Shown here one piece after another: positions 4,947 through 44,156 of a DNA stretch of 64,000 bases. A program made the translations under genes and the position numbers. The notes under the pieces were generated by a model that saw nothing but the letters and a program-made list of their open reading frames with translations, was not told where the DNA came from and ran no database searches. This DNA is from a virus, in IMG/VR virus record IMGVR_UViG_3300045988_101835, one strand, 5' to 3'. Each line of letters begins with the position of its first letter. Position 1 is the stretch's first letter.

Positions 4947-6569
4947 ATGGGTAGGTTTTTTAAAGACGGTTTTCAGTTATTTCCGGAGCAGATTGAATTG
5001 GCTAAGGGTCTTTCTAGCCGTAAGCGTGCTATCCTGATCGACAGTACGGGTAACGGCAAGACGCTTGTATGTTTATATTCCTACAGTTACTTGAAGTCGA
5101 AGGGTTTAGCAGATTGTCTTTTGGTTCTCACGCCTAAGAATGCTTATGACAAGCGGGTCTGGGCGAAGGATGCTGCGGCTCATACTCATTTGACGTCCAT
5201 TTCTTTGGATGACTTCATCAAGAAGGTTTCTGGTGGTGCTGACGTTCTGGAGCTTCTGAATAGCTATGATGTTGTTTACGGCAAGCATACTCATTGCAAG
5301 ACGGATTACGGTGTCCTTCGTCAGATTTATATGTCTTCTTGTAAGTTGGTTACGGTTCTTGATGAGGTCCATGCCTTCAAGAATTCGAAGGCTCAGCTTA
5401 CTTCCACTATGAGTTTGCTTGTTAAGAACTGCTATGCGTTGTGGGGTGTTACTGCCACGGTGCTGAGTAAGAACTGCATGGATACCTACCATTTGGTTAA
5501 CTTCGTCTATCCTCGGTTTTTCACGTCGGTTCGTGGGTTCCAGAGCCAGTTCTGTAAGGTCGAGGAGAAGGTCATTGGTCGCAATCCGGATAAGACTCTA
5601 CGCAAGGCTCGTATCATTACGGATTATAAGGATAGCGCTGCTTTGATGGACTATCTACGTCCGGTTATGATTGTCGGCACGCCACCTGTTCCTTTAGATA
5701 TTCACTTCATTGATTACACGATGTCGGCTTCTGAGCAGGACTTGTACGCTAAGGTTGCTAATGGTTTGATGTTGTCGGGCGAGAGTGATGACGCCACTTG
5801 GATTCAGCAGGTTGTGTCGCGTTCTGAGATTCGTGAGGGTGCCGTCCGGTCGGTCAAGGACTTGGAGCGTCATAGTTCTCGTTTTATCTATCTTCAGGCG
5901 GTCACGGATGGTTGCTTGAATTCGGATGGTACGTTTGGTGTTGGAGGTTCTCGCAAGCTGGATTCTTTACTGACGCTGGTCAGTGATATTGCTTCTCGGA
6001 ACGAGTCGGTTTTGGTTTATTTCGATTTCTATTCGTCATTGGATGCTGCCATGTATCACCTTCAGCGTTCCGGCATTACGGATTCCCGTGGCAGGTCCAT
6101 TGTCGTTGTTGAGTCTTCGTCTCGGAATGTCCTTAAGCCTACACAGGCTACGGAGTCGCAGTGCTTCATGAATAGTTATGTTATTCTGTGTACTCGTGCC
6201 GCTTCGGAGTCTGCCAATTACACTTACATTAATAATGTCGTATTGTTCGACGTTCCGGTCACGCCTATTCCGTTCCTTCAGTTTATTGGCCGCATTACGC
6301 GCAAGACGAGTAAGTTTTTAGGTGATCTTCATTTGTGGATATTCCGCAGTGATGACATTTCGGAGTATAAGCTTCAGCTTGTAGGCTTCAAGGTTTATAT
6401 GCAGGAGAAGATCAGCTTTGAGATTCATAATTTCCCGCGTGAGTATGTTAAGCCGATGTCGGATGCGGAGCACCTTCGAGTTGCAAAGCAGCATCTGCTG
6501 TGGAAGGGTCGCAAGCCGCGTCTTACGCGGTCGTCTCAGATTGTTCCGCAGGGCGGTACTCTCTTTTAG
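4947..6569 (+). CDS. SNF2/DExH-type superfamily-2 helicase
   Basis: Motif I 'DSTGNGKT', motif II 'LDEVHAF', motif III-like 'GVTAT', motif VI 'QFIGRITRK'. The first in-frame ATG at 4947 was chosen over the TTG at 4938. Confidence 0.75.
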   Translation: MGRFFKDGFQLFPEQIELAKGLSSRKRAILIDSTGNGKTLVCLYSYSYLKSKGLADCLLVLTPKNAYDKRVWAKDAAAHTHLTSISLDDFIKKVSGGADVLELLNSYDVVYGKHTHCKTDYGVLRQIYMSSCKLVTVLDEVHAFKNSKAQLTSTMSLLVKNCYALWGVTATVLSKNCMDTYHLVNFVYPRFFTSVRGFQSQFCKVEEKVIGRNPDKTLRKARIITDYKDSAALMDYLRPVMIVGTPPVPLDIHFIDYTMSASEQDLYAKVANGLMLSGESDDATWIQQVVSRSEIREGAVRSVKDLERHSSRFIYLQAVTDGCLNSDGTFGVGGSRKLDSLLTLVSDIASRNESVLVYFDFYSSLDAAMYHLQRSGITDSRGRSIVVVESSSRNVLKPTQATESQCFMNSYVILCTRAASESANYTYINNVVLFDVPVTPIPFLQFIGRITRKTSKFLGDLHLWIFRSDDISEYKLQLVGFKVYMQEKISFEIHNFPREYVKPMSDAEHLRVAKQHLLWKGRKPRLTRSSQIVPQGGTLF

Positions 6570-6603
6570 TTTTTTTTTTCTGGTGTGTTCTAAACTTAAG
6601 ACT

Positions 6604-8103
6604 ATGGAGGATATGTTTGGTGATTTAGGGATTGTTGACGCGCAGGGTTGGCGTGTCTCCGAGTTTTCTGCTGGCGGTGTTAACTCTCAGAAAGCCCGTC
6701 TTGCTTTAGAAGAGCGGTATTGGCCTATCACCGAAATAACCGAGCGATTTAATCGTCAAAGCGTCAGTTATCAATTAAGCAAAAGAGATTGTCTGCATAA
6801 ATGGTTAAAATACAAGGAGGGTTTTTCTGCCGAGTTGGTCAGTGCCCTTTTGCGTGATTTTCGTTTACAAAAGGGCGATCTAGTAGTAGATCCTTTTATG
6901 GGGTCAGGTACGACGGCTTTAGTATCAATGTTCAATGGGTACAATAGTCTTGGTTTTGATATTTTGCCTATGTCAGAAATTGCTATTCGTGCAAAGACTG
7001 CTATTTATGTATATGATGTATTGGAGCTGAAGGAGCTTCTTAAAGAGGTGGTAAACTTGCACGTTCCGGAAGAGTATGCAGGGCGCACTCCTGAAATAGG
7101 AATTACTAAAGACGGTTATCCCAGTGAGACGAGTCGTGATTTGGCCTATTATAAAGAACATTTTCTCAATTCCAGATATTCTGAGACTACGAAAATGCTT
7201 CTTGAGCTTTGTACTTTGAATGCTTTGGAGCGTATAAGCTACTCTGCAAAAGATGGGCAATATCTTAGATGGGATTATCGCTGTCCCAAGATTACTGCTG
7301 CTTCGGAGGCTAGATTAAGACAGGGTAAGAAGCCTTTTGCTGTCAAATTGGATAAAGGGTCCTTGCCGTCCCTCAAAGAAGTATTACTGGAAGAATTAAG
7401 TGGTGTCCTTCGGGATATAGAATACTTAAATAATACTCCTATTGGGTTTGATACGCAATGTAATTTTATTGAGGGAAGTGCGCTTTTTGAATTACCGAAG
7501 CTTGCAGACGGAACAGTTAGCGCAGTAATATCTTCTCCTCCATACTGTAACCGATATGATTACACTCGCACCTACGCTTTGGAGTTAGCCTATTTGGGGT
7601 TATCCGAGGCTGATGTGCGGGCATTACGTCAGGACTTATTGTCGTGTACAGTTGAGAATAAATCTAAAATTGAGCAACTGCGGGATTATTATCATCAAAT
7701 AGGGCAGGAAGATCATTATGACAGGACAATGAAGATCGTCGATGGAAATGCGGCACTTCAAGAAATAAATAACGCTTTGAAGAGCCGTAATGAAAACGGA
7801 GAGATAAACAATAAGGGAGTCCTTAAAATGGTGGATGGGTATTTCACAGAATTGACCTTTCTGTTTTCTGAGTTGTATCGCGTATGTAAGACTGGTGCAT
7901 ACGTCGCTTTCGTTAATGATAACGTAAGGTATGCGGGCGAAGTTATTCCGGTTGATTTTCTCACTACCAATTTGGCCGAGCAAATAGGTTTTACTCCAGT
8001 AAAGATTTACACTTTAAAGCAACAAAAAGGTAATAGTAGTCAGCAGATGAAGAGATATGGACGAGTAGCTTTGCGAAAAAGCATTACTATTTGGCAGAAA
8101 TAG
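6604..8103 (+). CDS. DNA methyltransferase (N6-adenine or N4-cytosine class)
   Basis: AdoMet motif I 'VVDPFMGSGTT' and catalytic motif IV 'SSPPYCNRYDY' about 200 aa later (alpha-like motif order). ATG at 6604 chosen because the upstream part of ORF 6418-8103 overlaps the helicase. Codon usage is A-rich at third positions, unlike the flanking phage genes. Confidence 0.8.
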   Translation: MEDMFGDLGIVDAQGWRVSEFSAGGVNSQKARLALEERYWPITEITERFNRQSVSYQLSKRDCLHKWLKYKEGFSAELVSALLRDFRLQKGDLVVDPFMGSGTTALVSMFNGYNSLGFDILPMSEIAIRAKTAIYVYDVLELKELLKEVVNLHVPEEYAGRTPEIGITKDGYPSETSRDLAYYKEHFLNSRYSETTKMLLELCTLNALERISYSAKDGQYLRWDYRCPKITAASEARLRQGKKPFAVKLDKGSLPSLKEVLLEELSGVLRDIEYLNNTPIGFDTQCNFIEGSALFELPKLADGTVSAVISSPPYCNRYDYTRTYALELAYLGLSEADVRALRQDLLSCTVENKSKIEQLRDYYHQIGQEDHYDRTMKIVDGNAALQEINNALKSRNENGEINNKGVLKMVDGYFTELTFLFSELYRVCKTGAYVAFVNDNVRYAGEVIPVDFLTTNLAEQIGFTPVKIYTLKQQKGNSSQQMKRYGRVALRKSITIWQK

Positions 8104-8671: not shown

Positions 8672-8703
8672 TTTGGATTTATAATTTTAATTATCTACTT
8701 TTG
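8672..8703 (+). promoter_or_regulatory. Bacteroides-type promoter (-33 TTTG / -7 TAnnTTTG)
   Basis: TTTG at 8672-8675, a 20-nt spacer, then TACTTTTG at 8696-8703. Preceded by a T-run, with an ATG 42 nt downstream. Confidence 0.6.
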
Positions 8704-9464: not shown

Positions 9465-9989
9465 ATGCTTATCACGAAGGATAATATTAAGGATTTCTCT
9501 TTGGGGCTTTCGTTGTCTTCCGGGGACGTTGTTCAGTTTGATATTGACTGCTACCTTCTGGAGTATGTTTATACTTCCGATGTTGAAGGCTGTAAGTTGT
9601 CTTTTCGTGGTGACGCTAATGGCATTTTTAATGCTACGCCTAACCCGGATTACGTTGTTACGGAGGGTGGCATGCTGGGTACGGTCTTACGCTTGTTGGG
9701 TTGTCGTGCCAAGGATATTAAAGTGTTTTATCGTTTGATTTACGGTGCAGACTCGGAGTCAGTTTTTCCTTATTTTCCGCTCGGCTGCCTTCGTTCGACC
9801 TTTAAGTCCGCATGTGCTCCGATGTATGTCCTTAACGCAGTCGTGGCGGTGTTTAGGCTTATGGGTTATTCAGTCCATCCGTCTTTCGATTTAGGTCCGG
9901 AGTTTTATGAGTTTATGGTTAAGATTCGTGATTTATCATATAACGGGCGTAGTGCCTTTGTTTTAGGTTCTAGGTTCACGATAGGTTAG
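9465..9989 (+). CDS. hypothetical protein
   Basis: 174-aa ORF with phage codon style. Confidence 0.55.
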   Translation: MLITKDNIKDFSLGLSLSSGDVVQFDIDCYLLEYVYTSDVEGCKLSFRGDANGIFNATPNPDYVVTEGGMLGTVLRLLGCRAKDIKVFYRLIYGADSESVFPYFPLGCLRSTFKSACAPMYVLNAVVAVFRLMGYSVHPSFDLGPEFYEFMVKIRDLSYNGRSAFVLGSRFTIG

Positions 9990-10741: not shown

Positions 10742-10827
10742 GCTCGGATGGTGAAATAGGTATACACGCCGGATTTAAGCTCCTGTGATCAGCAATGGTC
10801 GTGCGGGTTCGATTCCCGCTCCGAGTA
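10742..10827 (+). tRNA. tRNA-Leu (anticodon TAA)
   Basis: Hand-folded cloverleaf: acceptor GCTCGGA/TCCGAGT (G1:U72), D stem GTG/CAC, anticodon loop TTTAAGC, 17-nt variable arm, T arm GCGGG-TTCGATT-CCCGC, discriminator A. There is one C:U mismatch in the anticodon stem. Confidence 0.8.
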
Positions 10828-10847
10828 CTTTTTTTTTGCAACAAAGA

Positions 10848-10879
10848 TTTGCAACTTTAAATTAACTTTTTTATCTTTG
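10848..10879 (+). promoter_or_regulatory. Bacteroides-type promoter
   Basis: TTTG at 10848-10851, a 20-nt spacer, then TATCTTTG at 10872-10879. It directly follows the tRNA and a T9 run. Confidence 0.6.
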
Positions 10880-11161: not shown

Positions 11162-11245
11162 GCCGTCTTGTCGGAATTGGTAGACGAGAAGGTCTCAAAA
11201 ACCTTTGTCCTTTAGGACGTCCGGGTTCGATTCCCGGAGACGGTA
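11162..11245 (+). tRNA. tRNA-Leu (anticodon CAA)
   Basis: Acceptor GCCGTCT/AGACGGT (G1:U72), D arm TCG-GAATTGGTAGA-CGA, perfect anticodon stem AAGGT/ACCTT, loop CTCAAAA, long variable arm, T arm CCGGG-TTCGATT-CCCGG, discriminator A. It closely parallels the E. coli tRNA-Leu layout. Confidence 0.85.
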
Positions 11246-11273
11246 CGACTTCCCGACGTGGTTGCCGGGGGTC

Positions 11274-11304
11274 CCCAGCCTTGAAATGGTAGGTGCTGGG
11301 TTTT
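11274..11304 (+). terminator. weak hairpin plus T-run
   Basis: cccagc (11274-11279) pairs with gctggg (11295-11300) and is followed by tttt. Confidence 0.4.
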
Positions 11305-11789
11305 ATATTGTGCACATTCCGGTTTTAGCTTGGTTTATCCGTCCGGGTGTGGGTGCGTTGCTAGAGGAGTCTTTCCTACCGTAGGTTCCGTTTGCATAGC
11401 TGAATATCAGGCGTGGCGGCTTGGAGTAGCACGGCAACAGCTAAGTATGGGTTCTTTTGTTTTCGCTGCAGTTAACGGACATATGGTTAGTCCTTGCTGG
11501 GTTTCTTATAAAGGGATTTCTCAGGGGTAGTGCAGTGTTTAACGAAGTTTGTTTATGGGGCATTATCCGTTCGCCACTATGCTTTGGCTATAAGGATTCA
11601 TACTTTTTATACGTCTATGGTTTGTGTTCCTTGACATAGTGAAGACGGCACCGTCGAGAGTGATACTCTTTCGCTTTTAACCTTTGGAGCTCACTCATCT
11701 TTTTCTTCAGGCAATTCCTTGTGCATGTTCTGGATTTAGCCTGTCACTCTCACTTGTTAGTGGCGTGTGCTGTCTTCACCTTTTTTTTT
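11305..11789 (+). ncRNA. candidate structured non-coding RNA (family unknown)
   Basis: About 480 nt without a convincing ORF. The 3' part is closed by a 13-bp long-range helix, gtgaagacggcac (11639-11651) with gtgctgtcttcac (11767-11779), followed by T9. Confidence 0.35.
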
Positions 11790-11914
11790 CAGTGGGACCT
11801 GCCTGAAAGTAGAGTAGGGTGTATGTGAATCAGGGGTTCGATTCCTTATACCGACTAAGTTCGTCGCTGGTTGGTGCTGGTTTGCAATATAGTGCCTTCG
11901 GGGTCCTTCTTGTT

Positions 11915-12002
11915 GGAGAGTTGGCGGAGTTGGTCTAACGCGCCTGCCTACTAATCAGGTGTCCGGGTTTCCGGGCCGGGAGTTCGAATCTCTCACTCTC
12001 CG
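11915..12002 (+). tRNA. type-II tRNA, Ser-like, anticodon ACT (A34)
   Basis: Perfect acceptor GGAGAGT/ACTCTCC, D stem GCG/CGC, anticodon stem CCTGC/TCAGG (C31:U39 mismatch), loop CTACTAA, 18-nt variable arm with a 5-bp stem, T arm GGGAG-TTCGAAT-CTCTC, discriminator G. Confidence 0.75.
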
Positions 12003-12271
12003 CGCCGAGTTGTTTCCGGTTGTGCTCTGAATTTAACTGGCGTCGTTCCCGAACGTATCGGGGGATGGTTGAGGTGATACCATCAGAAATCACCTGCGGG
12101 CAGACGCGTATTTGTAGGAGTTGACTTGCGTCTATATCAGCAGGCTGCGGTTAAGATGTATGAGTTCACCGCTACGGTTGACTGTATTAAAACTCTATTC
12201 ATCGGTGCTTGTTAAGCGCGCAATGACAGGCATGACGTCCCTATCTGCAGTGGCGTGCGTAGGGCTTTTTA

Positions 12272-12356
12272 GGAAAGTTGGCAGAGTGGTCGATTGCGCT
12301 GGTCTAGAAAACCAGTGATCCTTTAGGATTCGGGAGTTCGAATCTCTCACTTTCCG
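12272..12356 (+). tRNA. type-II tRNA, Ser-like, anticodon AGA (A34)
   Basis: Perfect acceptor GGAAAGT/ACTTTCC, D stem GCA/TGC, perfect anticodon stem CTGGT/ACCAG, loop CTAGAAA, 16-nt variable arm, T arm GGGAG-TTCGAAT-CTCTC, discriminator G. Confidence 0.8.
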
Positions 12357-13044
12357 CCGCCCCTCCGGTTGTTAGACCTAATTGGAAGTCGACTAAGATT
12401 AGGTTGAGGCAACAGTTGTCTCACTTGCGTTTGCTTAAGTGTGGCAATGAGAGGGTCCCATAGAGGGGTATACTCTTAAGATGTCGATGTAGGCTCTTGT
12501 GATGACGTCGGCAATCCTACGTAGATGCTTAGGAGAGGATACCGGATGGATTCGGTTCCGCCTTTCGGAGGTTGCAAACGATGATTGGTATGGGCTGATG
12601 TATTCCGAGGTTCGAGTCCTCCCTCTATACAATTTAAGCTTGGTTCTTTTTTACATGGAGGGTTTCCTGCATTTTCTAGGCTGGCCCGAAGCCTACTTCG
12701 AAGAAACCACCGACGCGCAAGGTGAGGGGCTACGGAGGATAGTAGACGGGGTGAAATTCCGCCGTCGAAGCCGATGGAACCGGATGCAGATACGGATAAG
12801 GCGTGCGTTCCTTTTGCGAGGTTCGGCGTTTCTGCTACGCTCGTATTCGAGTACGGTACCTTCGAGGTACCGTTTCTTGCCATCCCCTTTTTGGCTGGTT
12901 AGGGTGAAGATCAGTCCGGTGCTGGTACGAGAAGTCAGCAGCAGCCCGTGACGGCTATATTGTTGCGGCGCGGTGAAGCTGTCCGATGTGGGAAATTCGG
13001 AGATCAGCGGGATGTCCTATTCTAGATGTGGGTGTCTGACATTA
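12357..13044 (+). ncRNA. candidate large structured non-coding RNA (family unknown)
   Basis: About 690 nt with only mutually overlapping low-complexity ORFs on both strands. Dense local helices include 12467-12480/12528-12543, 12745-12749/12762-12766 and 12853-12861/12865-12873. A tRNA-like T arm sits at 12606-12622. The tract ends at a strong terminator. Confidence 0.4.
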
Positions 13045-13070
13045 GACGGGTGATTCCCGTCTTTTTTTTT
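13045..13070 (+). terminator. rho-independent terminator
   Basis: gacggg-tgatt-cccgtc followed by T9. Confidence 0.75.
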
Positions 13071-13079
13071 ATGCATTTA

Positions 13080-13111
13080 TTTGGAGTTTTAATTTAACTT
13101 TTCTATATTTG
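13080..13111 (+). promoter_or_regulatory. Bacteroides-type promoter
   Basis: TTTG at 13080-13083, a 20-nt spacer, then TATATTTG at 13104-13111. Confidence 0.6.
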
Positions 13112-13140
13112 TGTGGTGCTACTTTAATCGGTGATTTACT

Positions 13141-13575
13141 ATGGTGTACGAGGATATGGTTGACTTGATGCGGACCTTCGATTCCAACGCTGTGGACGTT
13201 CCTCAGCTTGGCATCTTCTGGTTCTTGCCGGAGTCGGGTTCTTTGTTTGAGGTCCATACGGAGGACTTTGACAGTTCTAAGGTGGTCAATGGTCATTTGT
13301 CTTATGGCAAGCTTCACAAGAATTGGTGGACTAAGGCTCGCATGTCTCGGTCGAAGGGTTCCAACCCTATTTACCAGACTGATTATACTATGATTCCTCG
13401 AGGTAGGGTTTCGTTCGACGATGGCAGGTTTGTGGTGTATGTCGGAAGTTGGTATGCCCCTTATGAGTCTCTGCTTCGTGATCTTATTGTGGATGAGTTC
13501 AACATCCCGTATGATTTCGAGTTCTGTGTTAAGGAGCACTGGGATATCGGTCATGGTTTCAATGAATTGCTGTAG
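13141..13575 (+). CDS. hypothetical early protein
   Basis: 144-aa ORF 30 nt downstream of a host-type promoter. Confidence 0.6.
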   Translation: MVYEDMVDLMRTFDSNAVDVPQLGIFWFLPESGSLFEVHTEDFDSSKVVNGHLSYGKLHKNWWTKARMSRSKGSNPIYQTDYTMIPRGRVSFDDGRFVVYVGSWYAPYESLLRDLIVDEFNIPYDFEFCVKEHWDIGHGFNELL

Positions 13576-13578
13576 GTT

Positions 13579-13791
13579 ATGGGAAAGTCAGGTCTTTATA
13601 GTTTAGCGTTGGTGGTTAGTGCACTTTCTGCTGGTCAGGATTTGGGTATGTTTTCTGCCCGCGCCGGGGGTTGCTCGTCTCAGTGTACGGGTGTCGGAAA
13701 TGATACGCATCCGGTTGGTCACTTTAAACCTAAGAAGAAGCCGTTTGGTGCTCGGCGCCAGAGTAAGAAGGAGCGTTCTCGATCAAGGTAG
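13579..13791 (+). CDS. small protein with hydrophobic N-terminus and basic C-terminus
   Basis: 70-aa ORF with a signal-like 'LALVVSALSAG' and a Lys/Arg-rich tail. Confidence 0.45.
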   Translation: MGKSGLYSLALVVSALSAGQDLGMFSARAGGCSSQCTGVGNDTHPVGHFKPKKKPFGARRQSKKERSRSR

Positions 13792-13826
13792 GTAGTACGT
13801 ATAGGGTACAAAAATCTGTTTTTATT

Positions 13827-14138
13827 ATGCGTTTCGTTCCTAGTGCAGTTGATGCATTGAGTTCCTACGTGAGCGGTCTTGATGCCTTGCGCCATCCGCA
13901 GTTTGTTATCGATAAGATCGAGGTGGTTGAGCTTATGTTGCCTGAGCTTGCTGAGTTGCATGCTGTTCGTCCTAGCGAGGCTGAGGGTGCATGGGGGTCT
14001 GCGTGCTATGACTTGAGTACTACCATTGAGTTTCTTGGGAGTCTCAATCCAGACTTTGTGGATGTTGTATCAGGTCCGGAGAGCGTTCGAGTGCTTATTC
14101 GTCTTCATGAGCTGTTGTCTGCTGTGTTTGTAGATTAG
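13827..14138 (+). CDS. hypothetical protein
   Basis: 103-aa ORF with phage codon style. Confidence 0.55.
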   Translation: MRFVPSAVDALSSYVSGLDALRHPQFVIDKIEVVELMLPELAELHAVRPSEAEGAWGSACYDLSTTIEFLGSLNPDFVDVVSGPESVRVLIRLHELLSAVFVD

Positions 14139-21823: not shown

Positions 21824-23815
21824 ATGTTGTGGGGCACTTTTAATGGGTACAAGGTTGGCTTGGTTCAGAGTCTGTCGGATTTGGATTACATCCGGGCAGA
21901 TTTGCATGCCAATATAGTGGCTGGTTTGGATTCGGAGACGACGAGCTTATCTTTTGTTCACGGTCGAGTGGTAGGGGTATGTATCGCTACGGGTAAGACT
22001 TACAGCAAGGATGACTACTGTGGTTATTACATTCCGATTCGTCATGTGGGCTATCACGCCAATCTTCCGGTTGACCTTGTTATTGCTTTCGTGCAGTATG
22101 TCGTCGATAATTATATGACGATGTGGTGGAACCGGAGTTTCGACTTTTCTATGTTGGAGCTTGACGGGTTCAAGGCACCTTTTGTTGGTAAGACTCATGA
22201 CGTCCAGTTCATGGCGCATGAGATTTTCAATGAGCGTTATCCTAAGCTGAAGGTCTTTGCTAAGCGTCTTTTTGGGTTTAAGACTATCGACTTCGAGGAT
22301 AATAATGCGGTTAATGGTAACTTCGGCTCACTCGACCCGGAGGTCTCTTTCATCTATGCTGCTGCCGACCCTCTCATCACGACACTGTGTGGTCTCCGTA
22401 TTTGGAGTGACTATCCTCATATTCGTCAAATTTACCCGCTGGATAACGAGTCCGGTGAGGCTGTTCGTCGCTTGGCTAAGGCGGATATCCTTCTTGATTA
22501 TGATTTCTTGGATCAGGAGGTCATTCGCACTTCTGCCCGCATGGAGGATGTCCGGCAGCGTATCTATCAGCTTGTGGGCTACGTTTTCAACATCAGTAGT
22601 GAGGATGACAAGGCGGATGCCTTGAGCCGCTTTGTCACGTTGACGGTCCGTACTAAGAGTGGCAAGTTCAAGACGGATAAGAATGTCTTGGCGACGATAG
22701 ATCATCCGTTAGCTAAGCTTATGCTGGAGTATAATGCCTTGAGCACTTACTTGAAGTCTTTCGTTTCCAAGATGGTTTCGTGGCGTCATCGTCAGATTCC
22801 GGTTCATATTAATTATAACCTTGTCGTGGCGTTGACGGGTCGTATGAGTAGCTCCGGGTCGGAGGGTAATGACTTCTACGTTCCTTTTAATGGCCAGAAC
22901 TGTGTTCGTGGTTCTAATACTACAGTTTTCACTCGTTCCGGGTCCAAGTTGATTTCGGAGGTTGTTGTTGGTGACGAGGTTTGGGATGGCGATGCTTTTC
23001 GGCGCGTGTCTGCGGTTTTGGATCAGGGTGTGCGTGAGATTTACCGTTTGACTTTGGAGGATGGTCGTTTCTTGGACGCGACATCAGATCACCCGGTTCT
23101 CACGGCTTCGGGGTTCCACGAGGTTTCTACGTTACTCGGGGTCGATGTTTTGGTGAGTGAGAACCCTCATGTTTTCCTGACTGGTGTAGATTGTGGTCCC
23201 GCTAGGTACTTATGTAGGGTTGTGTCGATCCACCCTATTGGCTATGATCGTGTTTATGACATTACGGTCGATGTATCAGAGCGTTTTGTGGCCAACGGTA
23301 TTATAGTTCATAATTGCCCGAAGGTTTCTTTGAAGATGTATTTGCATACAGATCCTCTTATAGGCTACTGTTTGAAGCATGAGGCGGAGGGTGCTGTGTG
23401 TGATGAGTCGGGCAAGCCTATTAAGTATAAGACGAAGGGAGGACTTCGTGATGCCTTCTTGGCCAACCCGCCGGGGGAGGATGACTGGGTAATGGTTGGC
23501 AACGATTATTGTATTCATCCGGATACATTAGTATCGACACCTTCGGGAGATGTTCGAATAGGTGATATGGTTGGTTGTGAGTTCGAGGTTTCTACGCCTT
23601 ATGGTCCTTGCGTTGCTTCTAATGTTCACCATACTGGTCGTCGCAAGCAGTATCGTATAGAGTTGTCGGACGGTGCGGTTCTGGTTTGCTCTCCAGATCA
23701 TCGTTTGTGGGTGTGTCGTGATGACGTAGATATGTGGGTTAAGGCTTCTGAGCTTTTGAGTAGTGATTATATTTACACTCAGTCTGATGTTACTTATCCG
23801 GAGATTGTGAGCTAG
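21824..23815 (+). CDS. family-A DNA polymerase, N-terminal part (3'-5' exonuclease through motif A) with one complete and one half intein
   Basis: Exo I 'GLDSETTSL'. 'TGRMSSS...NGQN' corresponds to Pol I TGRLSS..NLQN. 'GNDY' is the start of motif A (DYSQIELR). The ORF ends inside an intein N-domain. Confidence 0.85.
   Translation: MLWGTFNGYKVGLVQSLSDLDYIRADLHANIVAGLDSETTSLSFVHGRVVGVCIATGKTYSKDDYCGYYIPIRHVGYHANLPVDLVIAFVQYVVDNYMTMWWNRSFDFSMLELDGFKAPFVGKTHDVQFMAHEIFNERYPKLKVFAKRLFGFKTIDFEDNNAVNGNFGSLDPEVSFIYAAADPLITTLCGLRIWSDYPHIRQIYPLDNESGEAVRRLAKADILLDYDFLDQEVIRTSARMEDVRQRIYQLVGYVFNISSEDDKADALSRFVTLTVRTKSGKFKTDKNVLATIDHPLAKLMLEYNALSTYLKSFVSKMVSWRHRQIPVHINYNLVVALTGRMSSSGSEGNDFYVPFNGQNCVRGSNTTVFTRSGSKLISEVVVGDEVWDGDAFRRVSAVLDQGVREIYRLTLEDGRFLDATSDHPVLTASGFHEVSTLLGVDVLVSENPHVFLTGVDCGPARYLCRVVSIHPIGYDRVYDITVDVSERFVANGIIVHNCPKVSLKMYLHTDPLIGYCLKHEAEGAVCDESGKPIKYKTKGGLRDAFLANPPGEDDWVMVGNDYCIHPDTLVSTPSGDVRIGDMVGCEFEVSTPYGPCVASNVHHTGRRKQYRIELSDGAVLVCSPDHRLWVCRDDVDMWVKASELLSSDYIYTQSDVTYPEIVS
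22901..23314 (+). other. mini-intein 1 (138 aa) inserted after the Pol I ...QN motif
   Basis: Cys1 'CVRGSNTTVF', block B 'LDATSDHPVLT', blocks F/G 'VYDITVDVSERFVANGIIVHN', followed by +1 Cys. No endonuclease domain. Confidence 0.8.
23510..23812 (+). other. split-intein N-fragment (101 aa) at PolA motif A
   Basis: 'DY|CIHPDTLVSTPSGDVRIGDM' (block A) and 'LVCSPDHRLWV' (block B). The ORF stops with TAG at 23813. Confidence 0.7.
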
Positions 23816-23818
23816 TGT

Positions 23819-23935
23819 ATGGGACGCGCTTCTAATATAAAATCCATTTCGGTATTACAGGATGAAGTTGACATGATTGACTTCTCTGTTGCGGGTGCTC
23901 ATTGCTACTATGCCAATGGTATGTTGGTCCATAAC
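23819..23935 (+). other. split-intein C-fragment (39 aa)
   Basis: 'MGRASNIKSISVLQDEVDMIDFSVAGAHCYYANGMLVHN', followed by +1 Cys. Blocks F/G are present. Confidence 0.7.
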
Positions 23936-26743
23936 TGCTCTGAGGAAATCGCCCTTGTAGCTAACATGTCCCGTGAGGAGGGTTTCTTGTATCCGCTGCG
24001 TCATGATCTCGATGTCCATATGTACGTTGCGGAGACGCGCTTCCATGTTTCGGACCCTGAGTTTCGTGATAAGTCTAAAGCTGTCTCGTTCGGTAAGATT
24101 TACGGTGGTGGTCCTACGATGATCGCTAACCGACTTGGTATTTCGAAGCAGGAGGCCAATAAGATCATCTATGACTACGATACGGGTATGCCTGTTTTTG
24201 CTAGGTGGCAGAAGGCTTTGCAGAAGCAGGCAAAACGTACGGGTTTTGCTAAGACGTTCTTTGGGCGCACTATTTACTTGGCTCGGTGGTTTAATTCTCC
24301 GGATAACGGATTGCGCGCTTATGCTGACCGAGTTGCTCTCAACAGTCCAATTCAGGGTCCCACGCCCCCTAACACTCTGATTTTGACCACTTTAGGCTAT
24401 GTTCCTATTAAGCATTTATATACCTTAGATGTTGCAGGGCAGCTTGCTCCATATGGTGTTAAGTGTTGGAATGGTGTTCGATGGTGCGATTTTCATGTTG
24501 TTGATGCGGGGTTAGGTGATATCCTTCGTTTTAAGTTCAAGCGTGGCAACTATGTTGACGTTGACGTTCGCCATCAGTTTAAGGTTTGGACTTCGGATGG
24601 GTGTGTTTTTGAGGATGCTACTAAGTTGTCGGTTGGGGATCGTGTTGCGGGGTCTTTGTGCCGTCGCCTTGAGTTCCCGGCACTGACGTTCTGTTGTTCT
24701 TCACAGTCGCGGTTGAAGGGTCTGCTTATCTCTCATTCTCCCCGTACCCTTTCCTACGAGGATAGCGTGACTTTGATGTGGTGGGTCGGTTATGCTTTAG
24801 GTGATGGTAACTTTAGTACGCCTAATGCTATTCGGTTTACATTAGGGGCTACGGAGACTTTCCGGTATGACGATGCTTCGGCTTTCTTTCCGTCTATTGG
24901 TTGTACGGTTGGTAAGTTGAATCATTGTACGGCAGATATGCCGGGGCGTAAGGGTGAGTGTTACACGTTCGTTGTGTATGGTGTCGATGTTATGCGGTGC
25001 TTGCGGCGCTTGGGTCTTGATTTTCGTTGGCGTCATCACACTAAGCGCATTCCGTGGCGACTGTGTTGTTCGTCTATTGCCCAGCGCAAGGCTTTGGTTG
25101 ATGGATTGTTTGCTTCAGATGGCTGTAAGACAGAGGAACAGTTCATGTGGCATATGTGCCAGTCGGACATTCTTCGTGACTTGCAGCGGTTGCTTCGGAC
25201 TTTAGGGTTTGATAGTACTTTGTATGCTGCGCCAGATGGTAAGTCCTATCGCTTGGTTGTGTGTGCGACTCAGGATTTCGCTCGGTTTATGGGTTATCCT
25301 TTGAAGGAGCAAGCGGGTCGTATTGGTCCGGGTCGCTGGAATGATCGTCGGATGGTTCCGTCGGTTTTGTGCCAGCGGTTTGTCTCTTGGCAGCAATCGC
25401 ACGGAGGTCCGTCGCCTGATCTGCCCTCTAAGCGTCGCCAGTCGGATATGGCATTAATGAGTCGCCTTCGTCATGGTGGTTCTGTTTCGTTTTCGACTTT
25501 CGAGAGCTTGGCTTCGGATTATGGCTATACGGAGTATCAGACGTGGGATGACTATCTGGAGGCTCAGGAGATCGTTGATATTGTTTCTTTGCCGCCGGAG
25601 AACTGCTATTGCCTTTCGTTGGATGATGAAAGCCATTGCTACGACACGGATGGTCTTATTTCTCATAATTGTTTACCTCGGTCCTTGTATTCGCCGTCGC
25701 AGGATGGTAAGGTTTATTCTCCGTGGCAGTCGTTCGTCGGCCACCGTATGACTTTCCAGACTCGGTCGGACGGCGCACGTGTTGGCGTTCCTACGTTCCG
25801 GGGTGAGCACGACCTTCATGTTGCTTTGTTCGATACGGGTGACTTCTGTGTTTGCAATCTGGGTCATAAGTTCGTTAAGTATGGTACGGATCGCGTCTTG
25901 CTTGGTTTGGATGAGATAGGTACTGCGCCTGTTGCTTTGATTCCGCCTATGCGCAAGAGTAAGTGGGGCTGGTTGAAGGGCTTGTTTAGTAGCCATAAGT
26001 GGACTTTGGAGTCGCTTCTTGCGCATGGTAAGATGGGCCGTGACATCCGCACGGACGATTGGGCTGTCTGCTGGTGTATGCTGAAGGCATTTATGACGCG
26101 AAAACGGGTCCATACGCGGTCGATGTTATCCGCAATGATCCTACGGTCCATCTGCGATCTTTTCGGCTGGAATTTGGTCTACGATTTGCGCCATTCGGTT
26201 GTTGATGATTATGCTTTCAAGTTACGGTGGGGTCGTCGGCGTAAGGGTCACGCTATTTTCGCCACGGAACTTGGAATTCGGGATAACGTTATTTCTCCGT
26301 CCATGTCTTCGGGCCTTCAGACTTACCCGTTGTGTGGCTTCATTCATAAGAACACGGGTGGTGACTTGATTCGCCGTGACTTGGTTAAGTTCGAGCGTTT
26401 GAATGATCTGCTCCCGGAGTGGCGTGAGAACGTCCGCTTCGTGGTTACGGTTCACGATGAGGTCCAGTTCCGTGTTCGCCGTAAGTATTTGTTCAAGGCT
26501 ATTCCTATCATCCAGAAGGTCATGAACTTCTGGCCTAAGAATTTTGAGACTCCGGTTGTTGTTGAGCCGGGTGTTGGTTTCCGCTGGGGCGGTGAGCTTG
26601 ATATTGACGCTGTTCTGGATGACGGTCGTATTGTTCCTAAAGGTTACATGCCGCCGCCGGAGTACTTCGAGGGCCACGAGGTCTATTGGCTTCGTTCGTG
26701 GAAGGAGGAAGAGGAGAAGAAGCGTGGTTTGTCTAAGAAGTGA
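23819..26743 (+). CDS. family-A DNA polymerase, C-terminal part (motifs A-rest, B, C) with intein insertions
   Basis: After 'VHN' the sequence 'CSEEIALVANMS' completes motif A. Motif B is 'KSKAVSFGKIYGG', 'NSPIQG' ... 'TGGDLIRR' corresponds to Pol I PMQGTAADIIK, and motif C is 'VTVHDEVQF'. Confidence 0.85.
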   Translation: MGRASNIKSISVLQDEVDMIDFSVAGAHCYYANGMLVHNCSEEIALVANMSREEGFLYPLRHDLDVHMYVAETRFHVSDPEFRDKSKAVSFGKIYGGGPTMIANRLGISKQEANKIIYDYDTGMPVFARWQKALQKQAKRTGFAKTFFGRTIYLARWFNSPDNGLRAYADRVALNSPIQGPTPPNTLILTTLGYVPIKHLYTLDVAGQLAPYGVKCWNGVRWCDFHVVDAGLGDILRFKFKRGNYVDVDVRHQFKVWTSDGCVFEDATKLSVGDRVAGSLCRRLEFPALTFCCSSQSRLKGLLISHSPRTLSYEDSVTLMWWVGYALGDGNFSTPNAIRFTLGATETFRYDDASAFFPSIGCTVGKLNHCTADMPGRKGECYTFVVYGVDVMRCLRRLGLDFRWRHHTKRIPWRLCCSSIAQRKALVDGLFASDGCKTEEQFMWHMCQSDILRDLQRLLRTLGFDSTLYAAPDGKSYRLVVCATQDFARFMGYPLKEQAGRIGPGRWNDRRMVPSVLCQRFVSWQQSHGGPSPDLPSKRRQSDMALMSRLRHGGSVSFSTFESLASDYGYTEYQTWDDYLEAQEIVDIVSLPPENCYCLSLDDESHCYDTDGLISHNCLPRSLYSPSQDGKVYSPWQSFVGHRMTFQTRSDGARVGVPTFRGEHDLHVALFDTGDFCVCNLGHKFVKYGTDRVLLGLDEIGTAPVALIPPMRKSKWGWLKGLFSSHKWTLESLLAHGKMGRDIRTDDWAVCWCMLKAFMTRKRVHTRSMLSAMILRSICDLFGWNLVYDLRHSVVDDYAFKLRWGRRRKGHAIFATELGIRDNVISPSMSSGLQTYPLCGFIHKNTGGDLIRRDLVKFERLNDLLPEWRENVRFVVTVHDEVQFRVRRKYLFKAIPIIQKVMNFWPKNFETPVVVEPGVGFRWGGELDIDAVLDDGRIVPKGYMPPPEYFEGHEVYWLRSWKEEEEKKRGLSKK
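24359..25669 (+). other. intein 3 (437 aa) with LAGLIDADG homing-endonuclease domain; no N-terminal nucleophile (Pro1)
   Basis: Begins right after 'PIQG' with a block-A-like 'PTPPNTLILTTLGYVPIKHL'. Block B is 'VDVRHQFKVW'. LAGLIDADG motifs are 'WWVGYALGDGNF' and 'ALVDGLFASDGC'. Blocks F/G are 'NCYCLSLDDESHCYDTDGLISHN', followed by Cys. Confidence 0.6.
25670..26353 (+). other. intein-like insertion 4 (228 aa), directly abutting intein 3
   Basis: Cys1 'CLPRSLYSPSQDGKVYS' (block-A spacing), 'CNLGHKFVKY' (block-B-like), ending '...LCGFIHKN' before the +1 Thr of 'TGGDLIRR'. The penultimate residue is Lys, not His. Confidence 0.45.
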
Positions 26744-27571: not shown

Positions 27572-28750
27572 ATGAAGAAGACATTCAAATATCGCATCTA
27601 CCCGAACAAAGCCCAGCAGGCTTTGTTACAGGCGACGTTTGGATGCTGCCGCTTCGTTTACAACAAAACGCTTGATATTAGGAAGACGGCTTACGAGACC
27701 GACAAGATGAAGCTTAGTAAGTTCGATTGCATCAATCGGATGACTGCGTTGAAGGATGAGTATACGTGGTTGCGTGCCGTTCCTGCGGTTTGCTTGGTTC
27801 AGGCTGTTGACAACATGGATACAGCCTACCAAAACTTCTTCAAATCTGGTAAAGGTTATCCGAAGTTTAAGTCGAAGCATCGTAGCCGTAAGTCCTGTAA
27901 GTTTATGGTGCCTAAGTGTGTTGTATTGCAAGATATTAGTCGTTTAAAGCTTTCTAAGTTAGGGTTAGTCAAGTACAAGAAAGACCGGGAGTTCGTTGGC
28001 GCTTTGCGTCACATTGTGGTTACACAAGAAAACGATGGTAAGTACTACGCGTCGTGCTTGGTGGAGACGGGCGTTGAAGCACCTAAGCCAAAGCCCGTTG
28101 ATGATAGCACAACGGTCGGCATTGACTTGGGGCTGAAAGACTTTATCGTCACGTCCGACGGGCGCAAGATACCTAACCCGCGCTTTTATGCTACTATTGA
28201 CCGACGCATAGCTAGGTTACAGAAGCATGAAGCACGAAAGACGAAAGGCTCGAAGCGTCGTGCCCGCATTCGCTTAAAGATTAACAAACTTTATATCAAG
28301 AAGCAAAACTTAATTAAGAATTATATTTACCATGCCGTCAAGACGTTACTGCGTGAGAGTCAAACGATAGTAATGGAGAATCTTAATGTTGGCGGCATGG
28401 TTAAGAATCATAGTTTAGCTAAATCCATACAGAACATTTGCTGGGGTGAACTTCGCAGAGTGTTAGAGTATAAGTCTCAATGGCTTGGTCATAACCTTAT
28501 TTTCATAGATCGTTGGGCACCGAGTACGAAGACTTGTAGTTGTTGCGGCTTTAAGAATGATATATTAACACTTTCAGATCGTTCGTGGACATGTCCGGGT
28601 TGTGGTACGCATCACGACAGAGATGTTAACGCTGCCCTCAACATTAAGCGTATGGGTTTAGAAAAGTTATTGCCTACGGTGAGTGGGTTCGACGGACGTG
28701 GAGAGATCGGTTACGATCTCGACGAAGCGTCAATATGTGCAAGTTATTAA
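27572..28750 (+). CDS. tnpB: TnpB (OrfB) RNA-guided nuclease family protein
   Basis: N-terminal 'YRIYPNKAQQALLQATFGCCRFVYN', RuvC-I 'GIDLGLKDF', RuvC-II 'VMENLN', zinc finger 'CSCCG...CPGCG', RuvC-III 'HHDRDVNAALNI'. Confidence 0.9.
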   Translation: MKKTFKYRIYPNKAQQALLQATFGCCRFVYNKTLDIRKTAYETDKMKLSKFDCINRMTALKDEYTWLRAVPAVCLVQAVDNMDTAYQNFFKSGKGYPKFKSKHRSRKSCKFMVPKCVVLQDISRLKLSKLGLVKYKKDREFVGALRHIVVTQENDGKYYASCLVETGVEAPKPKPVDDSTTVGIDLGLKDFIVTSDGRKIPNPRFYATIDRRIARLQKHEARKTKGSKRRARIRLKINKLYIKKQNLIKNYIYHAVKTLLRESQTIVMENLNVGGMVKNHSLAKSIQNICWGELRRVLEYKSQWLGHNLIFIDRWAPSTKTCSCCGFKNDILTLSDRSWTCPGCGTHHDRDVNAALNIKRMGLEKLLPTVSGFDGRGEIGYDLDEASICASY

Positions 28751-28781: not shown

Positions 28782-28813
28782 TTTGGATTATTAATTTAAC
28801 TTTACTATCTTTG
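28782..28813 (+). promoter_or_regulatory. Bacteroides-type promoter
   Basis: TTTG at 28782-28785, a 20-nt spacer, then TATCTTTG at 28806-28813. Confidence 0.6.
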
Positions 28814-37806: not shown

Positions 37807-39062
37807 GGTAATTATTTACTTTTTCATTTTCATTTGCAATAAATGTAAAATAATTGTAACTTGCAGTCGTGAAGAAGGCATTTAAATATCGCATTTATCC
37901 GAACAAGGCCCAGCAGGCTTTGTTGCAGGCGACGTTTGGGTGCTGTCGCTTCGTGTATAATAAAACGCTAGACATCAGGAAGACGACGTATGAGAGGGAT
38001 AAGACGCAGCTTAGCAAGTTTGACTTAACCAAGAAGATACCGCTGCTTAAAGAAGAGTTTCCGTGGTTGCGCGACGTTCCGGCGGTATGCTTGCCGCAAG
38101 CAGTCGGCGATATGGATGATGCCTATCAGAAGTTCTTTAAGTCCGGTAATGGTTATCCTAAGTTTAAGACGAAGCATCGCAGCCGTAAGTCTTGTCGTTT
38201 TCCGGGCCAGAGTTGTGCGGTATTGCAAGACATTAGTCGTTTAAAGTTTCATAAGTTAGGCTTAGTCAAGTATAAGAAGGATCGTGAGTTCGTCGGTACT
38301 TTACGTCACATTGTGGTTACACAGGAAAGTGACGGTAAGTACTACGCTTCGTGTGTAGTAGAGACGGGTGTCGAAGCACCTAAGCCACAATCCGCAGAAG
38401 CTAGTACGACGGTCGGTATTGACTTAGGACTCAAAGACTTTATCGTTACGTCGGACGGACGCAAGATAGCTAACCCGCGGTTCTACGCTACTATTGACCG
38501 TCGTATAGCTCGGTTGCAGAAGCACGAAGTTAGAAAGACGAAAGGGTCTAAGCGTCGTGCACGCATCCGATTGAAAATTAACAAACTTTATGTTAAGAAA
38601 CGCAACTTAATCAAAAATTATATTTACCATGTTGCCAAGACGTTACTGCGTGAAAGCCAAACGTTAGTAATGGAAAATCTCAATATTGTCGGCATGGTTA
38701 AGAATCATAGTTTAGCTAAATCCATCCAGAATATTTGTTGGGGTGAACTGCGTAGAGTGTTGGAGTACAAGTCTCAATGGCTTGGCCACAATCTCATCCT
38801 CATAGATCGTTGGGCACCGAGTACGAAGACTTGTAGTTGTTGCGGTTTCCACAATTCTATGTTGACGCTTTCAGATCGTTCGTGGGTTTGTCCGGGTTGC
38901 GGTACGCATCACGACAGAGACGTCAATGCTGCGATTAATATTAAGCGTATGGGTTTAGAGTCATTATTGCCTGCGGTGGGCGGGTTTGACGGACGTGGAG
39001 AGGTTGGTTACAACTTCGACGAGGCGTCAATATGTACAGTGTAGAAATTGTATGCATTCACC
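37807..39062 (+). mobile_element. TnpB-only insertion element, copy 2
   Basis: Left end ggtaattatttac... and right end ...aattgtatgcattcacc. Its ends are more decayed than those of copies 1 and 3. Confidence 0.75.
37869..39044 (+). CDS. tnpB: TnpB family protein (GTG start)
   Basis: Full set of motifs as in copy 1: GIDLGLKDF, VMENLN, CSCCG...CPGCG, HHDRDVNAAINI. The start codon is GTG where the other copies have ATG. Confidence 0.85.
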   Translation: MKKAFKYRIYPNKAQQALLQATFGCCRFVYNKTLDIRKTTYERDKTQLSKFDLTKKIPLLKEEFPWLRDVPAVCLPQAVGDMDDAYQKFFKSGNGYPKFKTKHRSRKSCRFPGQSCAVLQDISRLKFHKLGLVKYKKDREFVGTLRHIVVTQESDGKYYASCVVETGVEAPKPQSAEASTTVGIDLGLKDFIVTSDGRKIANPRFYATIDRRIARLQKHEVRKTKGSKRRARIRLKINKLYVKKRNLIKNYIYHVAKTLLRESQTLVMENLNIVGMVKNHSLAKSIQNICWGELRRVLEYKSQWLGHNLILIDRWAPSTKTCSCCGFHNSMLTLSDRSWVCPGCGTHHDRDVNAAINIKRMGLESLLPAVGGFDGRGEVGYNFDEASICTV

Positions 39063-44124: not shown

Positions 44125-44156
44125 TTTGGATTATTAAATTAACTTTTCTATCTTTG
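44125..44156 (+). promoter_or_regulatory. Bacteroides-type promoter
   Basis: TTTG at 44125-44128, a 20-nt spacer, then TATCTTTG at 44149-44156. Confidence 0.6.

Follow-up and report, generated by a model that had tools for sequence, protein, structure and literature searches.

What could a phage gain from two serine transfer RNA (tRNA) genes that carry adenosine at the wobble position of the anticodon, and which codons would such tRNAs read? This question is raised by IMG/VR virus record IMGVR_UViG_3300045988_101835, of which we analysed a stretch of 64,000 nucleotides (nt), here called the window. The first gene, tRNA-Ser(ACU), lies at 11915-12003 on the + strand with its anticodon at 11950-11952 and serves a split codon box; the second, tRNA-Ser(AGA), lies at 12272-12358 on the same strand with its anticodon at 12306-12308 and serves the UCN family box. 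In both, position 34 is A (A34; window positions 11950 and 12306). The original prediction had folded both tRNAs by hand at this place and read the anticodons as ACU and AGA with A34, and ARAGORN and the Rfam covariance model uphold location and anticodons alike. We regard it as moderately probable that these are two working serine tRNAs with unmodified A34, specialised for U-ending codons and supplementing the tRNA set of the host. Gene structure, conservation, the anticodon change in one lineage, codon usage and the enrichment in phages are observed, while expression, charging, modification state and decoding range are inferred. Beyond this single locus, tRNA-Ser(ACU) is a recurrent, conserved and phage-enriched gene class that current accounts call absent.

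Both genes score far above the gathering score of 29 bits for Rfam family RF00005 (50.9 and 54.5 bits, E ~1e-9). The covariance alignment sets CUACUAA in Ser(ACU) and CUAGAAA in Ser(AGA) as the 7-nt anticodon loops, and positions 34-36 are therefore ACU and AGA; covariance-model folding places no other triplet there. The variable arms are long (15-17 nt) with paired stems, in agreement with the initial description of type-II tRNAs with 7-nt loops. Just before the 3' trailer both genes have the discriminator G (G73), and neither encodes CCA. All pairs of the anticodon stem are intact in Ser(AGA), and in Ser(ACU) there is a C31-U39 mismatch that is shared with distant relatives. Each loop combines U33 with a purine at position 37, and the remaining loop positions are ordinary as well (C/U32, U33, A37, A38), so that only position 34 departs from standard serine tRNAs. 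By cloverleaf score, variable arm, G73 and loop, both genes encode class II tRNA-Ser of bacterial type. Seryl-tRNA synthetase (SerRS) recognises its tRNAs by G73 and by the long variable arm, and the anticodon plays no part in this. It would thus be expected to charge both phage tRNAs whatever stands at position 34.

One current account calls the seven tRNA(ANN) species of two-codon boxes universally absent, and the seven of family boxes absent from bacteriophages and, with the exception of some Leu(AAG) and Thr(AGU) genes of bacteria, from prokaryotes (bioRxiv 10.64898/2026.05.15.725136). Genes of the ANN type other than ACG numbered 695 among 246,393 bacterial tRNA genes, 19% of the 695 coming from two-codon boxes; in Escherichia coli, genomic Ser-tRNA(AGA) was mature, unmodified and functional, and overexpressed Ser-tRNA(ACU) was not harmful and improved growth, for which the authors invoke a low likelihood of mistranslation (bioRxiv 10.64898/2026.05.15.725136). 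Our text searches of the literature returned no paper describing a phage Ser(ACU), the sole match being a review table that lists chlorovirus ATCV-1 (PMC4810235). The decoding of such anticodons was measured by Schmitt et al. in 2024 with an orthogonal tRNA in E. coli (PMC11066159). There, decoding by the AGA anticodon amounted to 19.7% for UCU and 1.4% for UCC and fell below detection for UCA and UCG, and decoding by the ACU anticodon amounted to 9.4% for AGU and 0.36% for AGG and fell below detection for AGC and AGA; neither contained inosine, deamination being confined to ACG, AAG and AUG, which all have G36 (PMC11066159). The phage tRNAs lack this G36 of substrates of the deaminase TadA, position 36 being U in ACU and A in AGA. 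Most likely, A34 hence stays unmodified in both of them, and Watson-Crick pairing would then leave essentially one codon to each, UCU to the AGA anticodon and AGU to the ACU anticodon.

Alternatively, the host TadA or an unrecognised enzyme might turn A34 into inosine. Ser(IGA) would then read UCU, UCC and UCA, and Ser(ICU) would read AGU, AGC and some AGA, which would make both tRNAs broad readers that are functionally near to GGA and GCU tRNAs. Indeed, CUACUAA differs from the TadA substrate loop CUACGAA at position 36 alone, and E. coli Phe(AAA), also from a two-codon box, is seemingly deaminated (bioRxiv 10.64898/2026.05.15.725136). Codon usage points the same way in part: phages with ACU and phages with GCU have an equal AGT/AGC ratio, as if ICU read both codons like GCU. 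AGA moreover accounts for 1.1% of codons in ACU phages versus 1.5% in GCU phages (p = 0.046), and for only 38 of 17,217 codons (0.2%) in the phage studied here, both of which would fit avoidance of I-A misreading. Inosine is nevertheless the less likely state of both tRNAs, because neither the ACU nor the AGA anticodon is modified by E. coli TadA (PMC11066159), as was also found for the genomic Ser-tRNA(AGA) (bioRxiv 10.64898/2026.05.15.725136). Furthermore, ICU would place serine at AGA arginine codons, and the deaminase motif H[AV]E...PCxxC of TadA-like proteins was absent from the six-frame translations of the window and 12 related loci, while the E. coli TadA control was matched. Taken together, we rate the inosine explanation as unlikely. 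One may go further and imagine that Ser(ACU), by inosine or by superwobbling, reads the arginine codon AGA and possibly AGG as serine and so corrupts host proteins while sparing the phage with its 0.2% AGA. The widespread phage Ser(ACU) would then serve as a translational weapon, or mark a step on the way to codon reassignment, instead of being a supplement; we consider this highly improbable.

For unmodified specialists of U-ending codons, a matching codon demand would be expected. The original prediction had seen a strong preference for T-ending codons with frequent TCT and AGT, and the counts bear this out. The coding strand consists of 33% T, 27.5% G, 20% C and 19.4% A, and its AT skew reaches -0.4; at codon position 3, the shares are 44.5% T, 30.5% G, 17.7% C and 7.2% A. 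Serine makes up 11% of codons (TCT 602, TCG 569, AGT 319, TCC 174, AGC 147, TCA 87); TCT is the most frequent serine codon (602/1898), and AGT provides 68% of AGY. This strand asymmetry could result from a mutational bias of a genome transcribed from one strand, or from selection. Among stop codons TAG is the commonest, in about 40 of 73 open reading frames (ORFs).

As host proxies we used two 10-kb segments of bacterial chromosomes on which the phage methyltransferase has its closest cellular homologues. Genes for DnaA, ribosomal protein L25, LepA and glycoside hydrolases are among the neighbours of these homologues, and Bacteroidaceae is the name attached to one of the two. The segments bracket the phage in GC content (49% and 53%), and at codon position 3 they are rich in C and have only 14-18% T. 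Relative to these proxies only, TCT is enriched 7.1-fold (37.6 versus 5.0 per 1000 codons) and AGT 3.0-fold (18.3 versus 5.9). The codons of the two leucine tRNAs encoded nearby follow suit, with 3.4-fold for TTA (8.3 versus 2.1) and 2.5-fold for TTG (31.1 versus 12.1). All four rank within the 12 most enriched of 61 codons (hypergeometric probability ~0.001). Cognate codons that are commoner in phage than in host, the host side being the proxy segments only, are what codon compensation demands, a model for phage tRNAs reportedly put forward by Bailly-Bechet, Vergassola and Rocha in 2007 (cited through PMC4810235). That the leucine tRNAs match abundant tta and ttg codons, as had been suggested, applies to TTG, the commonest leucine codon (36%); TTA is not abundant (12%). 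The proposal of a tailored decoding set instead of random tRNA capture is supported by this four-codon enrichment and by the change from UGA to AGA in the very lineage in which TCA fell to 5% of serine codons.

We then surveyed how widespread such tRNAs are. A class II tRNA pattern with a YTACTAA loop was run in IMG/VR, and among the matches listed, 98 of 114 loci proved to hold Ser(ACU) when checked with ARAGORN; only five of the 98 also had a GCU gene. Combined with loci from earlier scans, the confirmed loci yielded 76 unique phage ACU tRNAs, so that at least 76 exist. These comprise 39 different anticodon stem-loops, in which pairs 28-42, 29-41 and 30-40 are 100% paired by 2-4 pair types each. 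Among the matches listed, the nearest ACU gene to an ACU gene had a median distance of 10%, whereas no GCU gene was found within 10% (median 23%); this is only indicative of ACU genes being closer to each other than to GCU genes. Frequencies of ACU and GCU are given as ratios only and were obtained with an anticodon-agnostic pattern (N at position 34), with hits taken in fixed order and confirmed by ARAGORN. The first 80 viral rows contained 9 ACU (12%) versus 66 GCU genes of the serine AGY box, and bulk metagenome contigs, among the matches listed, 0 ACU versus 116 GCU genes (Fisher p = 1.6e-4). In the same phage loci, the Phe, Tyr, His, Asn, Asp, Cys and Ile boxes showed A34 in 3 genes versus G34 in 479, a difference from the serine AGY box with p = 1.5e-6. 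From these two contrasts it follows that Ser(ACU) is specifically frequent, both in phages and for serine. Its earlier description as very unusual thus fits cells but not phages, where it amounts to ~12% of AGY-box serine tRNA genes in the viral-contig sample.

Why should serine be the exception? Since SerRS ignores the anticodon, position 34 is free to change in tRNA-Ser, which fits the contrast of 12% versus 0.6%; in most other tRNAs of NNY boxes G34 is an identity element. Bacterial tRNA sets read UCU and AGU by wobble. In Bacteroidales, the probable host group, these codons would be served by G-U or modified-U wobble only, and the A34 tRNAs would add decoding capacity for the T-ending serine codons that the phage over-uses. 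A single-codon specialist would be affordable for a phage, as the host set still reads the remaining codons, AGC included. In contrast, a cell with its sole Ser(GCU) mutated to ACU would lose the reading of AGC. We propose this difference to explain both the high frequency of ACU in phages and its near-absence from cells.

Ser(ACU) is also present in two cultured phages, namely Fusobacterium phage phiPaco, where the retrieved region has no other annotated tRNA, and Xanthomonas jumbo phage XaC1. Both genes are annotated just as tRNA-Ser, which suggests that phage tRNA annotation would be better with the anticodon reported and not the amino acid alone. Ser(AGA) is rarer than Ser(ACU), yet recurrent: an exhaustive YTAGAAA scan gave 77 pattern matches with 34 confirmed genes on about a dozen backbones, two of the 34 being from metagenome-assembled genomes (MAGs) of giant viruses. 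Both A34 serine species occur together only in the strain group of the window. For the UCN box, the association of codon and anticodon does hold, TCA being lower in AGA carriers than in UGA carriers (0.21 versus 0.33 of TCN, p = 0.0002, a value that ignores kinship). Other A34 tRNAs outside arginine were present in IMG/VR loci L033-L342, with 7 Leu(AAG) versus 8 Leu(GAG), 8 Thr(AGU) versus 18 Thr(GGU) and 2 Gly(ACC) versus 41 Gly(GCC). Leu(AAG), Thr(AGU) and Gly(ACC) in phage contigs are at odds with statements of their absence from phages.

Within the clade of the window, the two genes have different histories. The distant relatives L003, L006 and L007, with a DnaB-like helicase only 58-59% identical, have a syntenic array of Leu(UAA), Leu(CAA), Met, sometimes Phe, Ser(UGA), Ser(ACU) and Asp. 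They retain Ser(ACU) with the anticodon arm CCTGC CTACTAA TCAGG, and its variable arm shows compensatory changes, e.g., C-G to A-T. A34 is hence old and maintained in this clade, and Ser(ACU) is under purifying selection; the window gene is the nearest relative of other ACU genes. Ser(AGA), by comparison, is limited to close strains (the window, L001/L020, L004/L015, L008 and MT839121), and its sequence is identical in L001, L004, L008 and L032. It arose by a recent U34-to-A34 change from a Ser(UGA) gene, because the seven nearest tRNAs outside the close strains are all Ser(UGA), at 77-84% identity. TCA makes up 5% of serine codons in the Ser(AGA) lineage versus 10% in the lineage that keeps Ser(UGA).

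These histories also bear on whether A34 means anything for decoding. G-to-A and T-to-A substitutions might have been neutral or slightly deleterious under weak selection, with no special decoding role of the resulting tRNAs. In agreement with this, the serine genes are dispensable in a natural deletion strain, the neighbouring Leu(UAA) looks decayed in L001 and L004, and the array is an indel hot spot. However, drift would hardly keep A34 across deep divergence together with compensatory stem changes, and the distance of the sampled ACU genes from any sampled GCU relative speaks against it as well. In addition, the near-absence of A34 in other NNY boxes of the same loci (3/482) argues against general drift. 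We give this explanation only a slim chance.

Several observations weigh against two codon-specialised supplementary tRNAs with unmodified A34. The host proxies are just two 10-kb segments whose relation to the true host is uncertain. GTT, GGT, GAT and GCT show a still larger excess than the four cognate codons, yet they have no phage tRNA; the tRNA set is therefore selective, not complete. The evidence for non-deamination was obtained for E. coli TadA and may not reflect the specificity of the Bacteroidales enzyme. Among the sampled carriers, AGT/(AGT+AGC) is 0.62 in ACU phages versus 0.65 in GCU phages at equal GC content. A link of ACU presence to AGT preference across phages, which we had considered, was thus not found, and codon matching alone does not explain how frequent ACU is. 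Finally, one distant relative, L005, is without Ser(ACU), and strain L345, which is 94-99% identical and was binned in a Muribaculaceae MAG, lacks 11909-14002 and with it both serine genes. In L345, 66 nt (9558-9623) stand in place of this 2.1-kb stretch. From both strains it follows that the serine genes are dispensable. Insertions of ~1.26 kb were found before Leu(UAA) in L001 and near 11609-11911 in L008; the tRNA region is an indel hot spot, and its tRNAs are accessory genes.

An enrichment of ACU in phages whatever their AGT preference could also mean that A34 was selected for a reason other than codon tuning, i.e., as an escape from an anticodon nuclease or toxin acting on host Ser(GCU) or Ser(UGA), with the phage copies replacing the depleted tRNAs. 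Phage tRNAs with loop changes predicted to confer nuclease resistance are documented, and VapC toxins cleave serine tRNAs (PMC10264068). All four tRNAs of the window being class II serine or leucine species would also fit. As a candidate enzyme for class II tRNAs we considered bacterial Schlafen and dismissed it, because the tRNAs cut by the enzyme that has been characterised include those for Lys, Met and Ala, with no specificity for serine and leucine. To our knowledge, there is no nuclease specific for Ser(GCU). In NGA anticodons the VapC site is the GA dinucleotide, which is kept in AGA, so that a U34-to-A34 change would not protect. Moreover, the loop is ordinary apart from position 34, and we found no defence or counter-defence gene in the window linked to the array. 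We thus hold nuclease escape to be rather improbable and keep to supplementary tRNAs for U-ending serine codons as the favoured explanation.

Such tRNAs would have to be expressed, and the surroundings of the genes suggest how. In the 64-kb window, ARAGORN finds four tRNAs, all on the + strand and all class II serine or leucine species, in ~3.6 kb (10.6-14.2 kb) without convincing long ORFs. The array starts with tRNA-Leu(UAA) at 10742-10828 (Rfam 51.2 bits), followed by tRNA-Leu(CAA) at 11162-11246 (Rfam 52.1 bits in a sensitive scan), which is cognate for TTG by the codon counts. A pattern search of the window for the promoter-like motif TTTG then TAnnTTTG gave 7 matches versus 2.7 expected, and 5 of the 7 share the 32-nt consensus TTTGGATTATTAATTTAACTTTTCTATCTTTG with -33 and -7 elements of Bacteroidota type. 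These copies lie on the + strand at 8672-8703, 10848-10879, 13080-13111, 28782-28813 and 44125-44156. The predicted promoter at 10848-10879, just 3' of Leu(UAA), probably drives Leu(CAA), Ser(ACU) and Ser(AGA) as one transcription unit, and both serine tRNAs would thus be made together with Leu(CAA). The end of this unit is probably a + strand hairpin at 13044-13070 that resembles an intrinsic terminator, with a 7-bp stem of 5 GC pairs and then the T-run TTTTTTTTAT. Just after it, the copy at 13080-13111 is predicted to open the downstream gene block, and a direct repeat, D1, ties the promoter at 10848-10879 to the copy at 13062-13111.

The Leu(UAA) gene differs within the clade. Its loop in the window is UUUAAGC with G37 and C38, and in distant relatives CUUAAAA. 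For the homologues in L001 (2657-2743) and L004 (5626-5712), ARAGORN gives a 4-base anticodon (taag); both carry C instead of A58 in the T-loop and are mismatched at 2-71 in the acceptor stem, with TTA at 11-12% of leucine codons. In these two strains, Leu(UAA) is probably decaying.

Further tRNAs in the long spacers were sought with ARAGORN, allowing introns and lowered thresholds, and with a sensitive Rfam scan, which returned only weak T-arm-like relics. The fragments GGTTCGATTCC and GGTTCGAGTCC lie at ~11830-11860 and 12533-12630, with weak tRNA-like scores (Rfam tRNA-Sec, 20 bits, E = 1.6), and may derive from the Met, Phe or Asp tRNAs that distant relatives possess; we treat them as possible decayed genes and not as tRNAs. 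The spacer 11246-11504, 3' of Leu(CAA), shows ~70% conservation in relatives with only 58-59% helicase identity, whereas the remaining spacers of the array are not conserved there. This spacer could hold a small gene or a structured RNA.

All genes around the array are on the + strand. Among the replication genes, matches were obtained for two helicases, one of them DnaB-like, for a DNA polymerase spread over two ORFs and for a DNA methyltransferase; there is also a match to a tail-fibre protein. IMG/VR relatives are contigs of 67-88 kb at ~99% identity and of 102-142 kb at 58-59% helicase identity. When the helicase was compared by tblastn with a collection of 50,697 phage records, nothing matched, and the phage thus has no named relative in that collection. 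The host is probably a member of the Bacteroidales. Hints to this are the Bacteroidota-type promoter motif, the closest cellular homologues of the phage methyltransferase, which are named Alistipes and Bacteroidaceae, and, weakly, the Muribaculaceae MAG in which the same phage was binned at 94-99% identity.

The methyltransferase gene (6418-8103) encodes an N6/N4 DNA type enzyme (PF01555), is of atypical composition and has bacterial homologues at 59-71% identity. These adjoin a BsoBI-family restriction endonuclease, which makes it probable that the phage gene encodes an orphan anti-restriction methylase. Three copies of an IS605-type TnpB/OrfB gene (PF12323, PF01385, PF07282) occur at 27572-28750, 37869-39044 and 48204-49382; they are ~80-85% identical in DNA and far less skewed in base composition than the remaining phage DNA. 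All homologues at 83-100% identity were on phage-sized contigs of at most 145 kb, and the family looks like one multiplying inside the phage clade. The TnpB genes accordingly did not serve to name the host, their one match in a genome collection being the same phage in the Muribaculaceae MAG. The ORFs 21824-23815 and 23819-26743 are in frame, separated by TAG and one codon, and match consecutive profile positions of the phrog_17 DNA polymerase, which points to either a split polymerase or read-through. General recoding of TAG was considered and rejected: only 10 of 22 gene pairs are in frame, each with an ATG 3-36 nt downstream, as in ordinary tight packing.

Unmodified wobble-A tRNAs are a long-standing gap in the adaptor set of the genetic code, and the window provides a clean natural example of two A34 serine tRNAs. 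It thus offers natural material for testing the decoding by A34 in vivo and for asking why cells avoid A34. Likewise, the idea that specialist tRNAs are affordable to supplementing genomes only can now be put to the test.

In comparison with known systems, the two serine genes are phage-encoded supplementary tRNAs, a known kind, here with A34. Like the codon-compensating tRNAs in arrays of T4 type, they belong to a small array in a lytic-looking phage, and their cognate codons are over-represented relative to host-like DNA. The usual phage serine tRNAs have UGA and GCU anticodons, however, whereas here A34 is present in both and each would read one U-ending codon instead of two or more. Chlorovirus ATCV-1 also encodes a serine tRNA with an ACU anticodon (PMC4810235), but it infects a eukaryotic alga and its gene is listed without comment; the genes described here are from phages. 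Eukaryotic tRNA-Ser(AGA), which ADAT2/3 converts to IGA, shares anticodon and amino acid with the phage Ser(AGA). The phage gene differs by its bacterial-type backbone, by having phage Ser(UGA) as its nearest relatives, by its recent U34-to-A34 change and by the lack of an ADAT. Bacterial tRNA-Arg(ACG) and the lineage-specific Leu(AAG), which obtain inosine from TadA, resemble the phage tRNAs in a gene-encoded A34 and in the loop context YUA..AA. Unlike these, the phage serine tRNAs have U or A and not G at position 36, no deaminase was found in the phage, and ACU belongs to a split box in which inosine would misread AGA. A further parallel is offered by tRNAs that function with unmodified A34, i.e., Mycoplasma tRNA-Thr(AGU) and the tRNA(ANN) sets of E. 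coli (PMC11066159, bioRxiv 10.64898/2026.05.15.725136), a state that we likewise infer for the phage tRNAs. As with the engineered ACU and AGA anticodons in E. coli, which read essentially the U-ending codon only, the phage tRNAs would be confined to AGU and UCU. Those systems are an oddity of a minimal genome or laboratory constructs; the phage genes are natural, conserved and phage-borne.

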